DNA of 64,000 nucleotides from Octopus vulgaris. Its lineage: Eukaryota. The position numbers were made by a program, and so were the translations under genes. The DNA lies in NCBI GenBank assembly GCA_951406725.2, contig OX597823.1:113708001-113772000 (forward strand), written 5' to 3'. Each line of letters begins with the position of its first letter. The first letter of the stretch is position 1. Below, one piece after another: positions 3,292 through 64,000 of this stretch. The notes under the pieces were generated by a model, which saw nothing but the letters and a program-made list of their open reading frames with translations, was not told the DNA's origin and did no database searches.

Positions 3292-3589
3292 TATATAGAA
3301 AATAGAAAAGAGTGAAAAAACTACAGAAGGCTTGTTTTATAAGGTTAAAGAATGTAGTTAAGTCGTTATGTTAGAACAATGTTAGAAAATTTTGCATATA
3401 GTAACATGATTTATGGAGAAATTACCGGTTTCGTGTTAACTTTTCAAATTTCTCAAATCTCTTTACCTACATCGTGTTACTATATGCAAAATTTTATAAC
3501 ATTTTTCTAACATAACGACTTAAATACATTCTTTAACCTTATAAAACAAGCCTTCTGTAGTACTTTTCACTCTTTTCTATATTCTATAT
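3292..3589. repeat. Foldback element in (TA)n with ~120-bp inverted arms; spacer holds the 3' half of a hammerhead (minus strand GAAAC-CG-GUA)
   Basis: Arm ~3292-3410 is the reverse complement of ~3471-3589 with a few mismatches; taccggtttc at 3423-3432; (TA)n on both sides. Confidence 0.85.
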
Positions 3590-4394
3590 ATATATATATA
3601 TATATATATATATATATATATATATATATACATACATACCCTACTAAACGTATGCTAAATATTTGAGAGTTATTACTGCACTAACTACTAAACATACACT
3701 AAATACAGAGTAATCATTCAAATTATTTCGGTGTTCTTCAGTAAATCTAACGAATAACTGAATCAAATAAACTGACAAGCGATTTGGCTCTCTAATTTTA
3801 TCTTATACAGAAACAGAATAAGGCAGCGATAGTAATGCCATTTGGACGATACATAACTTCTTTTTTGTGTACCAACAAACTAAAACTTGTGGCACTTAAA
3901 GACGATTTCTATATCTTCATTCCCTTGCAGAGCAGAACTGATTTTTATCTATTAGAACTCTATGAAACATCTACAAATATTCATCCGTGATCACTAACCT
4001 TTCACCTCTCGTTATTTTTATTCAACCTCACCATTTAAAGTCGCCACAAATTACTTTCAATAATGTACCCCACGTTCAATTTTCTATGTGAATGAATTCA
4101 CACCTGCTGATTCGGTTAGTGTTCGGATATGTATCAATCAAATATCGAACTGAACACGAACTATAATCATTTGATTAGGATGGTAGGTATTCCCGTCACT
4201 GTGCCTTCTCAAGTATAAGCATAAGGAAGTGCAACTACATACACGCGTAAACACAAACACACACGGATGTATATATACACTCACATGCCTCTGAATGGAT
4301 ATATATACATTAGGTTAATTTCAGTGGTGTTTGAATGGTACCTAATAAAACATGGGATCCGTGTTTCCGGTGATTCATATATACATTGAGAAGC

Positions 4395-4810
4395 AATAAG
4401 ACGTTTCAGAAAGTATTCATCTTTCTCAACACAATCAAGATCTTCTGTAATGGAAACCTGAGTGTCCTTTTGGTCAGCTGAAAGCCGTTTTAGCACAAAC
4501 TTAGTAGACACACGTCTCATACCCAAATCATCAGTGATAATGGGTTGGACTGAACGGTAACCGATTTGCACATCCTCTGATAACACGCGGATTGTGATTA
4601 GACGAATTTTCCCACACAGCTGTACGCATATCTGCGATGTTTTTCTCAGTTCTGCTGGTTGCGGGTCTTCCAGAGCTTTCGTCAATGTCAACATTTTTTG
4701 TCCATCTTGGAAAACGTCTGATTCTCTCGTACATTTGTGTGTGGCTCAGACACTCCTCTTCATGCTTTGCAGCATTTCGTCCGCGTTTACTTTCCGAGTT
4801 CACATTCTAC
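4395..4810 (-). pseudogene. Mariner transposase N-terminal remnant (HTH region to WVP-like motif), frameshifted
   Basis: ORFs 4531-4803 and 4281-4694 give YERIRRF..DESSGRPATS, RLITIRVLSEDVQIGYRSVQPIITDDLGMRRVSTKFV..LSADQK, FLKRLI. Confidence 0.85.
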
Positions 4811-5153
4811 CAATGTCGACTTCACCGTTCATCCTTCCGTGGTCGATAAAATAAGAACCAATTGAATACAGTGATTGATGTAATCGATTAACCGCCCTCC
4901 CCGGGATTACAGGGCATGCGTCAAAATCTAAAATTAATGTGTGCATCTATCTATCTATTATCGGTCTCTCTCTCTATGTTTATGTATATGTATATATATA
5001 TATATATACATATGTGTGTGTATATATATATATATGTAGATATATATTCATATATATATACATATGTGTGTGTATATATATATGTATATATATATATATA
5101 TATATGTAAATATATATATATATATACAATATGTTACATTACTCGGTAGTCAA

Positions 5154-5214
5154 GATAAAACTCTGAGTTTCAGATGCCGAGGTGGAAATCCACAACACCA
5201 TCTCTTCGGTTATC
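5154..5214 (-). ncRNA. Hammerhead-like ribozyme motif, U4C core variant
   Basis: Minus strand: GAUAA-CCGAAGA-GAUG..GUGGA/UCCAC..CAUC-U-GAAA-CUCAGAG-UU-UUAUC; stem I GAUAA/UUAUC; GUU site. Confidence 0.65.
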
Positions 5215-5597
5215 TGGCTATTTGAAAACATTATGAAAAAATACCGTTAAAAATGAAGGGAAATTACTCTGTTATAACTCTGCTTTGCCTGCGTACTTAT
5301 ACATCGCTCGCATTTTTCGTCATAAAAATTATATAAAAATACATAAAAAATATATAAAAATATATAAAAATATATATTTTTTATATATTTTTATATTTTT
5401 ATATTTTTATATATTTATATATTTTTATATATTTTTATATATTTTTATATATTTTTATATATTTTTTATGTATTTTTATATAATTTTTATGACGAAAAAT
5501 GCGAGCGATGTATAAGTACGCAGGCAAAGCAGAGTTATAACAGAGTAATTTCCCTTCATTTTTAACGGTATTTTTTCATAACGTTTTCAAATAGCCG

Positions 5598-5658
5598 GAT
5601 AACCGAAGAGATGGTGTTGTGGATTTCCACTTCGGCATCTGAAACTCAGAGTGTTATC
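5598..5658 (+). ncRNA. Mirror copy of the U4C hammerhead-like motif; GUG at the cleavage triplet, likely inactive
   Basis: gataa-ccgaaga-gatg...catc-t-gaaa-ctcagag-tg-ttatc. Confidence 0.55.
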
Positions 5659-60865: not shown

Positions 60866-61112
60866 CTTAGTACTTATTCTATCGGTCATTATGCCGGACC
60901 GCTAGCTTACGGGGACATTAAACACACACGCAGATACATATATATATATATAGAAGACGGGCTTCTTTCAGTTTCCGCCTGCCAAATTCACTCAGAAGGC
61001 CTTAGTTGCCGCGATGCTATAGTAGAAGACATTTGCCCAAGATGCCCCGCAGCGAAACGGAACCCGGAACAATTTGGCTGAGAAGCAATTTGCTTACCAC
61101 ACAGCTACCCCT
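60866..61112 (-). mobile_element. SINE family A, deleted copy
   Basis: tagtacttattctatcggtc..gggcttctttcagtttccg..ttgcccaagatgcc..cttaccacacagc. Confidence 0.8.
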
Positions 61113-61390
61113 GATATATATACATACACACACACACACACACACACATATATATATATATATATGCATACACACACAGATATATATATATACACACATA
61201 TATATATATATATATATATATATATATATATATATATATATATATATATATATATATATATATATATATATATATATATATATATATATATATGAGATAA
61301 TTGAGATTCAGATGAATTACGTACTTAAGTTGAAGCACCAATTCACTCTGATATTATCCGCAATGTGGGGTAAATAAAATCGAAATAAGC

Positions 61391-61647
61391 AACAGGATAT
61401 CAAGTAGTAATGCAGTACGACCGTTTGAAGCAGCTCCATTCGACTGAACAATGCAATTATTAGTGTCTTGCCCCTGTAATTGGGAATTAACATCCTGATT
61501 TAAAGTCTACCCCTACGCTGCCTCTAGTCTCAGATTTAATAGATGATAAGGAGATAAATTACAAATGAATTACACCCTTTACAACGCTATGACCCCATTA
61601 TGTTCCGCCTGAAACGGTCGTACTGCATTACTACTTGATAACCTGTT
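61391..61647. repeat. 36-bp inverted arms (61391-61426 / 61612-61647) carrying a hammerhead 3' half GAAAC-GGUC-GUA
   Basis: aacaggatatcaagtagtaatgcagtacgaccgttt versus aaacggtcgtactgcattactacttgataacctgtt. Confidence 0.75.
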
Positions 61648-61666
61648 TCCTATTTTGAAGATGTAA

Positions 61667-62105
61667 GCAGGAGTGGCTGTGTGGTAAGTAACTTGTTTAT
61701 CAACCACATCGTACCGTGTTCATTTCCACTGTGTGGCACCTTGGGAAAGTGTCTTCTACTGTAGCCTCAGGCCAACCAAAGCCTTGTGAGTGGATTTGGT
61801 AGACGGAAACTGAAAGAAGCACGTCGTATATATGTATGTATATATATATATATATATGTGTGTGTGTGTATGTGTGTGTGTGTGTGTGTGTGTGTATGTA
61901 TATGTTTGTGTGTCTGTGTTTGTCCCCCCAACATCGTTTGTCAACAGATGGTGGTATGTTTACGTCCCCGTAACTTAGCGGTTCGGCAAAACAGACCGAT
62001 AGAACAAGTACTAGGCTTACAAAGAATAAGTCCGGGGTCGATGTGTTCGACTAAAGGCGGTGCTACAGCATGGCCACAGTCATATGACTGAAACAAGTAA
62101 AAGAG
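61667..62105 (+). mobile_element. SINE family A, near full length
   Basis: Colinear with 34493-34895. Confidence 0.9.
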
Positions 62106-64000
62106 AATATATATATATATATATATATTCCTCCTTAATTCCTTGTTCCTCTTTTTATCTCTCTTCTCCCCCTCCTTAATTCCTCTGGCCCTCTTTTCCC
62201 CTCTCTTCTCTTCACACGTAACTGACTGACCGACTACTGGCCTTTTGGGTCTGTCAGCGGTCGTGGTAACATCAACCTTTTTTTCTCTGCCCCAAGGCAC
62301 ATTCCTAACACGCTAGCTGAATTTAATTCGTCTAAGTCGAAACACGCCTGTTTTCGATGTCCTACTATTGTTGTTGTTGTTGTTGTGGTTATTATTATTA
62401 TTATTATTATTATTATTATTATTATTATTATTATTATTATTATTGTTTTTACGTATTATTTTTGTATTCATATTCGTGTAACATCGTCCGTTTTTCCGTC
62501 CTTGTTTTGTATACATTCGAAGCTTTCTTCCAAGGAATCTAATGCGCTTAGCTTAGTTTTTCCTTGGGGCTGGCCAGATTGGAGCAATCTCAAGATTAAT
62601 CATCCGAAATTGCGAGGATGATCCGGTTCTTGACTGAAGAATATCCCGTCCGTGTTTTTTGTATCGTCTTCTAAATGTTTCGCGTTCTTGTCCCAGTTTG
62701 TATTTTATATATATATATATATATATAATAATAATAAATATTAGGGAGTAAATCCAAACTTACAGGGAAAAATCAGATTTAGTATTGAATCCAATTTTAT
62801 AGTAAAATATTATATTATATTAAATTAGAGATAAAACCACTATTAGGCAAATCATACAATGAAAAACTTAAGCCAATACATAAGATTATTTAATGTATAT
62901 TATTTAAATATATAACAAAATTATTAAAAAAATATAATTAATATAACACTACGATCGTATATATATATACATAGATACATTATACATACATATATAGCGG
63001 GCCTATTTCGGTTTTCGTTTACCAAATCTAGTCACAAGGTAATGGTTGACACGGGTGTCTTTATAAGTAAAGAATAATATATATTAATCTATGTCATTAC
63101 TACTTTACTATTCATCGAATGTTTGCATATTCAGATGAAGCTGGAATGTCATTTTACCACATTTTCTCCTATGTATTTCAGCCAGAGGCCGAGGCCACGC
63201 TGGAGCACCGCCTTTACTGCATCCGGGAGTTTTACAGTATTTCTTCTGGTGAAGTAGTGAGTTGGACATTGTTGCTCTTCTTTGTGGCTCCTGCCGCTAT
63301 GTGGGTCCGTCTGGTATTTCAGATGTTTGTATTACAACTAGATGAGCGCTGTAAACTTGGCAAGTGTCCCCTACCTTTGTTTCTACTTGATCAAAACTTC
63401 CCTCTTTTTTAAGATAACCATTGATTAATCTGTCTCATTCTTTCCCTATCTCTCGTCTACTCTCTCTCTCTCTCACTCTCGCAGACACTTTGTTTTTGCT
63501 ATCAATCAAAATCTGCTCTCATGACTTCTCTTCATTTTTTAATGTCACCCTTTTTTGTGTTCCGTAATATCCTTCTGTCCTATCTTTTTATCAATGTTTT
63601 TAATAATCTCTCACTATGTCTTCATGTATGTAACTCTTTGTGGCGTGAATCCTTTGCCCAACCTCTATTCACCTGTTATTCCCTAGAATGCATCACTGTA
63701 ATGCAACTGGTGGTGTCCAACCACCACCAGTTGCACTGCCATTTTCCTTCTTTCCTCTTCTGTTACTCGCACTAATTAGTTCTGTATCATTATTCCAGTT
63801 ATTATAAACCTCATATTTTATTGCTCAGCTCATTGCTGGTTGTCGGCTAACGGTTTCCATCGTAAACGGCCACTTTCCGCTCTACGAATTTATGAAATTC
63901 GCTTCTTTTTAAAACACTTTCTCCCTTTTCTACACCAGAGGCACAGTTTTCTCCTTCAAGCGTAAGAGAAAACGAATGGATTGGAAAATGCGAATCCATC

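Follow-up and report, generated by a model that had tools for sequence, protein, structure and literature searches.

Minimal type I hammerhead ribozymes are known from the ends of Penelope-like elements (PLEs), where close pairs on opposite strands and a U3-A8 variant of the core also occur (PMC4209133), and dimeric PLE hammerheads (Lunse et al.) are treated in the review PMC6765202. The Hydra clade of PLEs is defined, in the clade description of PMC8557442, by one open reading frame (ORF), a length below 3 kb, a reverse transcriptase (RT) followed by a GIY-YIG endonuclease without CCHH, and RWK, DKT, CxCx5C, CxxC and CxH motifs. The supplement of that article (Craig et al. 2021) contains an octopus member, Hydra-1_Obim, with a preference for (TA)n and a listed hammerhead. 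A repeat survey of Octopus vulgaris reports 31 recently active PLE families, the word hammerhead being absent from its main text (PMC13282606). The present work concerns 64,000 nt of the Octopus vulgaris genome (contig OX597823.1, positions 113,708,001 to 113,772,000, assembly GCA_951406725.2), referred to as the window, in which approximately twelve families of short inserts, mostly set in (TA)n tracts, carry hammerhead motifs for which self-cleavage is predicted.

These inserts are very probably the terminal segments (a pseudo-long terminal repeat, or pLTR, with a type I hammerhead motif, and a tail) of several PLE families, and they probably arose through target-primed reverse transcription at nicked (TA)n tracts. 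It was known before that PLE ends carry hammerheads, that TA is targeted and that octopus has a Hydra element; new here are 5' ends fixed at one base and the pairing of a long with a short end in palindromes. In the literature covered, most of it open-access, no report was found of start-anchored arm ends or of a cap-derived G for PLEs. At least seven families are added, and family A, with intact and near-identical copies, offers a potential Hydra element for biochemical work. The statistics of the junctions are relevant to the role of the PLE hammerhead and to the formation of inverted copies, both of which are called open in the literature covered.

Hammerhead motifs of the window

The hammerhead motifs in the inserts are confirmed as real. 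A preliminary description, made from the letters of the window, had claimed that the inserts share one hammerhead architecture. A type I descriptor, drafted post hoc after the sites had been read, matches 8 loci in the window, compared with 0.15 ± 0.40 (maximum 2) in 200 block-wise dinucleotide shuffles, and its canonical-core form matches 5 loci, compared with 0.005 in the same shuffles; the window has a mean of 34% G+C and many (TA)n tracts. A descriptor that requires pairing is circular, and motifs were therefore also selected by the core boxes alone. In 31 distinct motifs obtained in this way from loci fetched genome-wide (2.8 Gb in 227 contigs), some of them related and so representing fewer than 31 independent events, stem I has 100 of 124 Watson-Crick pairs (36.8 in a re-paired control, maximum 59 in 5000) and stem III has 56 of 62 (control 21.1, maximum 36). 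The claim of a shared architecture is borne out, both by the motif excess and by the stem covariation that the preliminary description had itself proposed as checks. In addition, stems I and II of a relative of the family B insert (locus L162) differ by paired changes. The motifs combine the core boxes and their 3-8 pairing with stems I and II, a short palindromic stem III and UH, the cores of families C and G being non-canonical. The preliminary description had also pointed to Rfam; here the window gives no match reaching the gathering score, and no hammerhead is present among the 150 of 288 weak matches listed.

The thirteen sites described as full motifs are of uneven quality. Those at 5154, 32624, 41090, 49308 (both strands) and 49606 pass the full descriptor, and the remainder fail in part. 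The sole failure at 5598 is a G at position 17, for which reason the hammerhead at 5603-5653 is predicted to be inactive. Sites 7101 and 7186 have a weak stem II and pass once the stem II test is dropped; at 6859 the core and stem II are present, with a non-palindromic stem III of 1 bp and a short stem I; and 36395, 46998, 56606 and 56661 are decayed or variant copies identified via their relatives. Three further sites had been taken for half motifs, correctly for 45894 and 61611, which are both 3' halves, and mistakenly for 3423, which is a complete U3-A8 hammerhead and passes the descriptor. The eighth match, at 59520, falls in none of the listed inserts and probably reflects chance. Two inserts had been overlooked, at 20423-20730 (a family C palindrome) and at 32454-32590 (an A-like copy). 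The family A hammerhead at 5209-5159 has a C4 variant core and a stem III palindrome centred on one free base; across the set the natural core variants comprise C4, U3-A8, G3-C8, U6 and C9.

Core position 9 is C in most family C copies (L243-L267) and the canonical A in the window copy at 6859. Families C (C9) and G (U6) are abundant despite their non-canonical cores. The flanks of the fetched loci (L001-L352) contain at least 20 further hammerhead types, many with stem II regions of 45-70 nt, and the genome, to judge from these sequences, appears to hold many more hammerhead-bearing families of this kind.

Coding parents and comparison with described elements

Seven families (A, C, D, E, G, H and I) were traced genome-wide. 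Upstream, each of the seven extends into a Penelope-like ORF whose C-terminal part is a GIY-YIG domain, of Hydra type in four and of CCHH type in three. The linkage to RT and GIY-YIG ORFs that the preliminary description had suggested looking for therefore exists, each traced family being collinear with an ORF for RT and/or GIY-YIG. Its further statement that no autonomous RT/GIY-YIG partner is evident in the window is also upheld, no PLE ORF having been found across the window.

A genome search with window segment 5500-5690, from family A, returned copies that share a fixed 3' end and vary at the 5' end, with inverted pairs among them, and one copy extends into an RT and GIY-YIG frame. All 40 scored matches to this frame, drawn from 1316 candidates, are 99-100% identical, so that at least 40 near-identical copies are present. 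Six fetched regions contain 2590-bp tandem units and three intact, identical ORFs of 708 amino acids. The encoded protein has YxDD at 346, GIY-YIG at 577-598 and the motifs RWK (37), DKT (114), CxCx5C (557), CxxC (660) and CxH (691), and has no CCHH and no cysteines between GIY and YIG. The Pfam GIY-YIG match of family A is below the cut-off (E 0.013); in the CCHH families it is above the cut-off for I, below it for G, and there is none for C. Relatives of the family A protein that reach E <= 1e-10 number 1015 of the 7999 candidates scored, with 52% for the best. An initial assignment of this ORF to Naiad was dropped, as the endonuclease is C-terminal and the Hydra motifs are present. On contig C1 (57208846-57222586), five tandem family A units on one strand are followed by two on the opposite strand, at a spacing of 2.58-2.59 kb.

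For families D and E, two or more loci each have a Hydra-type ORF approximately 1.1-1.2 kb upstream, and family H leads through a repeat-rich untranslated region (UTR) of approximately 2 kb to a broken Hydra-type ORF. The D, E and H ORFs are partial or broken, have 34-47% identity to A and lie 1.1-2.1 kb upstream of the motif. The 3' UTR of H, rich in simple repeats between ORF and ribozyme (L097:400-3110, L109:390-3400), is long for a type described as below 3 kb. Families C, at many loci, and I have related CCHH-type ORFs with 48% mutual identity, and family G, at three loci, has an ORF of a third CCHH type. The CX2-5CxxC linker and the CCHH-type GIY-YIG are present in the translations of C, G and I. 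General PLE features are also found, namely partial tandems, an inverted 5'-truncated copy and a tail at one end only.

Family A agrees with the Hydra clade as described in PMC8557442 in its single ORF with RT and C-terminal GIY-YIG, length below 3 kb, motif set, hammerhead close to the 3' end and insertion at (TA)n. The start of the Hydra-1_Obim protein, as printed, resembles family A, by eye only, and its listed hammerhead sequence differs from those of A, D, E and H. Tails of 30-40 bp are described for the clade, compared with approximately 67-115 nt in the families here; moreover, family A differs from that description in having tandem and inverted copies and in looking recently active, and family H in its 3' UTR of approximately 2 kb. 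Families C, G and I match Neptune/Nematis, the CCHH PLEs with C-terminal endonuclease and CX2-5CxxC linker in the same description, from which they differ in that C has mostly C9, G has U6 and I has G3-C8. The short or palindromic stem III, the additional base next to stem II and the U3-A8 variant are shared with published minimal hammerheads of PLEs, as is the presence in one genome of many unrelated families, whose motifs are mostly single ones from truncated PLEs and in some cases close opposite-strand pairs. In contrast to those, some families here have stem II regions of 50-70 nt or an unpaired base pair in stem II, at its foot.

The preliminary description had left a choice between Penelope pLTRs and retrozymes, of which the former survives. 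Metazoan non-LTR (long terminal repeat) retrozymes, in the accounts of PMC7229834 and bioRxiv 10.64898/2026.07.22.740005, share type I hammerheads, short non-coding copies and a link to PLEs. Retrozymes consist of 150-450-bp units repeated directly in tandem and have no coding part, whereas the inserts here are single or inverted ends of coding elements. No hammerhead tandem arrays of 150-450 bp are present in the window, and position-ordered H and A copies are single, inverted or full-length tandem. With no short tandem arrays and with each of the seven traced families running into a coding parent of its own, the inserts are not retrozymes.

Several points weigh against the assignment to PLEs as a whole. 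Five of the approximately twelve families (B, F, J, K and L) stand outside the ORF tracing, the link to an ORF rests on one locus for H and one for I, and clades were assigned by motifs rather than by a tree, Neptune and Nematis being left joint for C, G and I.

Arm ends and the mode of insertion

Genome-wide, the inserts are the 3' ends of elements (pLTR, ribozyme and tail), each here called an arm, often doubled as head-to-head palindromes within (TA)n. Exact-pattern counts, which are lower bounds and refer to arms rather than insertions, are 5875 for H, 5888 for I, 1832 for A and 672 for D, with 0 for reversed controls. Arms end at (TA)n in 35/35 cases for A, 87/88 for H, 34/35 for D, 27/27 for E, 22/23 for C and 32/39 for G; the (TA)n placement given in the preliminary description is upheld, since 237 of these 247 arms from six families have (TA)4 or longer within 230 nt, compared with a fraction of 0.30 at random window positions. 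The 3' ends fall at two preferred distances, approximately 60-115 nt apart, in A, H, D, E and C, and mainly at one in G. A long end is paired with a short end in 55 of 56 scoreable palindromes (H 24/24, A 10/10, D 21/22), seven further pairs being impossible to score.

In families H and I, the 5' ends concentrate at a single base. Among the first loci along C1, 22 of 90 family H arms start exactly at -6 from the core and 24 more at -5 to 0, perfect palindromes being counted twice and the loci having been found with a pattern spanning the cut; the H palindrome of the window has arms that each begin 6 nt ahead of the core. In family I, at the first loci along the same contig, the start is at -23 in 10 of 47 arms and at -22 to -19 in 13 others, and just 7 extend beyond; the start base is the A within a TCAG word. 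H has a TATA-like box at -35 and I a TATA-like run at -53, so that 29-30 nt separate it from the start in both. The base preceding the -23 start is G in 8/10 arms of family I, whereas long genomic copies have C; when three arms in which the partner supplies the base are removed, G is present in 5/7 (p ~0.002 against 17% G, post hoc). In H, 9/9 non-symmetrical junctions at -6 have G, most of them explainable by the partner arm, and in the pooled families G precedes 17/31 arms at the peak compared with 12/63 elsewhere. The fixed 5' stop in H and I is likely to be the element's own transcription start, and the pile-up with the extra G suggests that the inserts are complete cDNAs of capped, uncleaved, internally primed sense RNA. 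An extra G as copied cap is described for full-length L1 insertions in PMC11702581, a TATA box with initiator within the pLTR was noted earlier in a rotifer, and the Drosophila Penelope promoter, in the account of PMC2377424, is internal and TATA-less.

No pile-up of arm starts was seen at the cut site in the arm sets. The family A set was found with a pattern wholly downstream of the cut and is not biased toward the core; 33 of its 35 arms extend upstream of the cut. Over the seven families, most of whose samples are biased toward the core, 280 of 291 arms do so, 2 start at the cut and 9 alignments stop further down, several by small indels. As nearly all arms reach upstream of the cut, linear cleaved RNA is a minor template at most. 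The plus arm of the family B insert starts at or just past the cut site, ambiguously. Transcripts of palindromic inserts are predicted to form long hairpins with 77-87% of bases paired, which would bury the motif, and ribozymes within them are unlikely to fold actively. Cofolding favours dimers energetically, without reliably giving the active double fold.

It is somewhat probable that the protein encoded by the element severs the two strands of the TA tract and starts cDNA synthesis two times, once at each tail site, with uncleaved sense RNA as the template. Priming at the tail just downstream of the promoter would yield cDNA running to the capped 5' end, approximately 30 nt below the TATA-like box, and the short product would be a piece of 100-200 nt comprising the ribozyme and little else. 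The two cDNAs would join through a few bases of microhomology to give a head-to-head palindrome, and the ribozyme would act, if at all, on tandem transcripts as a dimer or with protein help, rather than in the hairpin-forming by-products. The evidence is about evenly poised on the fuller proposal that ribozyme-only palindromes record PLE insertion in vivo, by two primings on capped, uncleaved sense RNA, each able to reach the pLTR start and to copy the cap as G. If this is true, a sense rather than an antisense template is favoured for head-to-head inversions, in two clades the transcription start sits immediately upstream of the ribozyme, and most insertions take place without cleavage.

The nearest biochemical counterpart is PAc, the Poseidon element of Anolis (Frangieh et al. 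2024, PMC11167929). In the in vitro experiments described there, uncleaved RNA is the main substrate, two internal priming sites define the tail and both strands are cut, at AT-rich DNA, all as proposed here; the ribozyme is dispensable for insertion, likewise in agreement. PLEs carry their tail at one end only (described in PMC8557442 and PMC3846280), which two internal priming sites, as in vitro for PAc, would explain. PAc differs in that the work was carried out in vitro, in another clade, and that 5' ends of inverted copies are not addressed in the parts of the article concerned.

Other observations count against the transcription-start and sense-template proposal. Family A has only a broad start cluster (11/35 arms at -8 to -20, with a TATA-like word at approximately -42), the family D sample is biased, and G truncates progressively. 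The pile-up bases of H and I can also be read as 3' splice acceptors, and a known Penelope intron ends at stem I (PMC4209133). The partner arm can supply the preceding G in 3/8 cases for I and in most for H. Two of the 291 arms begin exactly at the cut, as does one more partner arm (L130).

A possible, although rather doubtful, explanation is that the elements are the same and that the short palindromes arise where RT stalls, either on RNA structure or on a splice junction, or by self-priming of cDNA or on an antisense template, in which case the fixed 5' ends are not transcription starts. The H and I pile-up sites close with YAG after a pyrimidine-rich run, in H the stop falls on the base that opens stem I, the words at the junctions form short palindromes, and self-priming on antisense RNA was previously proposed for such palindromes (PMC3846280). 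However, the distance from stop to core differs between families (6 nt in H, 23 nt in I), whereas that from stop to TATA-like box is 29-30 nt in both. A splice junction is disfavoured in that four I arms with unrelated flanks have in common only the single G and no exon-like sequence, and in that no intron joint is listed in four contig sets aligned to family A (contigs only, from runs not on record as RNA); these sets cover the whole family A unit and give no evidence of expression either way. Simple self-priming leaves the differing 3' ends of the two arms unexplained.

That hammerhead-cleaved linear or circular RNAs are the main templates, with the ribozyme setting the element boundaries, is improbable. 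This model was proposed earlier (PMC4209133), three arms start exactly at a cut site, and a circular template could yield the head-to-tail family A arrays with their regular spacing. The reach of most arms beyond the cut, in the core-biased sets and in the unbiased A set, counts against linear cleaved RNA only, since a re-ligated circle would also span the cut; a circular template does not fit the hard stops upstream of the core.

It is very unlikely that the inserts are independent non-autonomous elements resembling retrozymes or miniature inverted-repeat transposable elements, transcribed, self-cleaving, perhaps circularising, and mobilised in trans. The 200-nt H palindrome, junction included, is identical at 28/30 best-scoring loci, which hinted at a self-propagating unit, and there are thousands of H and I copies, few of them long. 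This set was selected by score, however, and position-ordered H loci weaken the idea, as they have many junctions, the commonest of which is spread over four H subfamilies with arms of the matching subfamily each time, pointing to repeated formation. The lack of 150-450-bp hammerhead arrays in the window and the own ORF of every traced family also speak against independence. The reading of the motifs as chance matches in AT-rich repeats, to which the copies failing the strict descriptor and the lack of an Rfam match might lend colour, is refuted by the shuffle controls, the cross-family covariation and the fixed position in PLE ends.

Inventory of the inserts and other elements

Table 1. Inserts with hammerhead motifs in the window, in window coordinates
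Insert	Position	Strand	Remarks
Family B inverted insert	3264..3584	both	Complete U3-A8 hammerhead on minus strand, core to cut 3447-3423
Family A (Hydra-type PLE) short-end arm	5116..5376	-	Hammerhead 5209-5159
Family A long-tail arm	5433..5760	+	Hammerhead 5603-5653; 98-99% identical to 3' end of intact elements
Family C arm (CCHH-type PLE 3' end)	6692..6948	-	Hammerhead ~6859-6899
Family D palindrome (Hydra-type PLE)	6998..7258	both	Hammerhead cores at 7190 (+) and 7134 (-)
Second family C inverted insert	20423..20730	both	Core decayed
Older A-like arm	32454..32590	+	Decayed hammerhead; back to back with family E over one TA tract
Family E arm (Hydra-type PLE)	32596..32747	-	Canonical core, long stem II, 6-nt palindromic stem III (32706-32630)
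Family F arm	36088..36490	-	Decayed hammerhead near 36395
A-like arm	40982..41165	-	Canonical core, 41146-41096
Family K insert	45825..45941	-	3' half of motif only; no relative among fetched loci
Family G arm (CCHH-type PLE)	46922..47125	+	Family core with U at position 6 and extra base; 2-nt stem III
Family H perfect palindrome (Hydra-type PLE)	49239..49440	both	Hammerheads 49378-49416 (+) and 49369-49331 (-)
Family I arm (CCHH-type PLE)	49470..49668	-	G3-C8 core variant, 49649-49613
Family J palindrome	56508..56862	both	U3-A8 type, mutations in both motifs
Family L inverted insert	61295..61670	both	3' halves of motif
F-like arm	62807..62958	-	Truncation inside stem III

Families H and I adjoin back to back over one TA tract (49239-49668), as the A-like and E arms do (32454-32747), and the H-I adjacency recurs at loci L028, L029 and L030, which were selected with a query containing both. 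A short insert between TA and CA tracts at 6196-6320 has a GAAA-containing end and no relative among the fetched loci. In the family A contig material, a single contig (run X9, depth 8; no matched DNA) has 15 differences in 160 nt at L021:7343-7502, the listed ones being T>C, a cluster that would be as expected from hyper-editing of antisense or double-stranded PLE RNA.

The window also contains elements of other kinds. A non-LTR retrotransposon remnant in (AAT)n at 13609-16388, with an RVT_1 match at 13760-14680 and, at 15873-16388, a frame resembling a restriction-like endonuclease, is presumably Dong/R4-like. Its RT (13760-16388) was considered as a partner of the PLE ends and dropped, having no similarity to PLE proteins. 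Broken Tc1/mariner-like transposase frames with a weak DDE_3 match are present at 7733-8547, and more mariner-like pieces lie near 4281-4745, 38280-38960 and 53208-53510.

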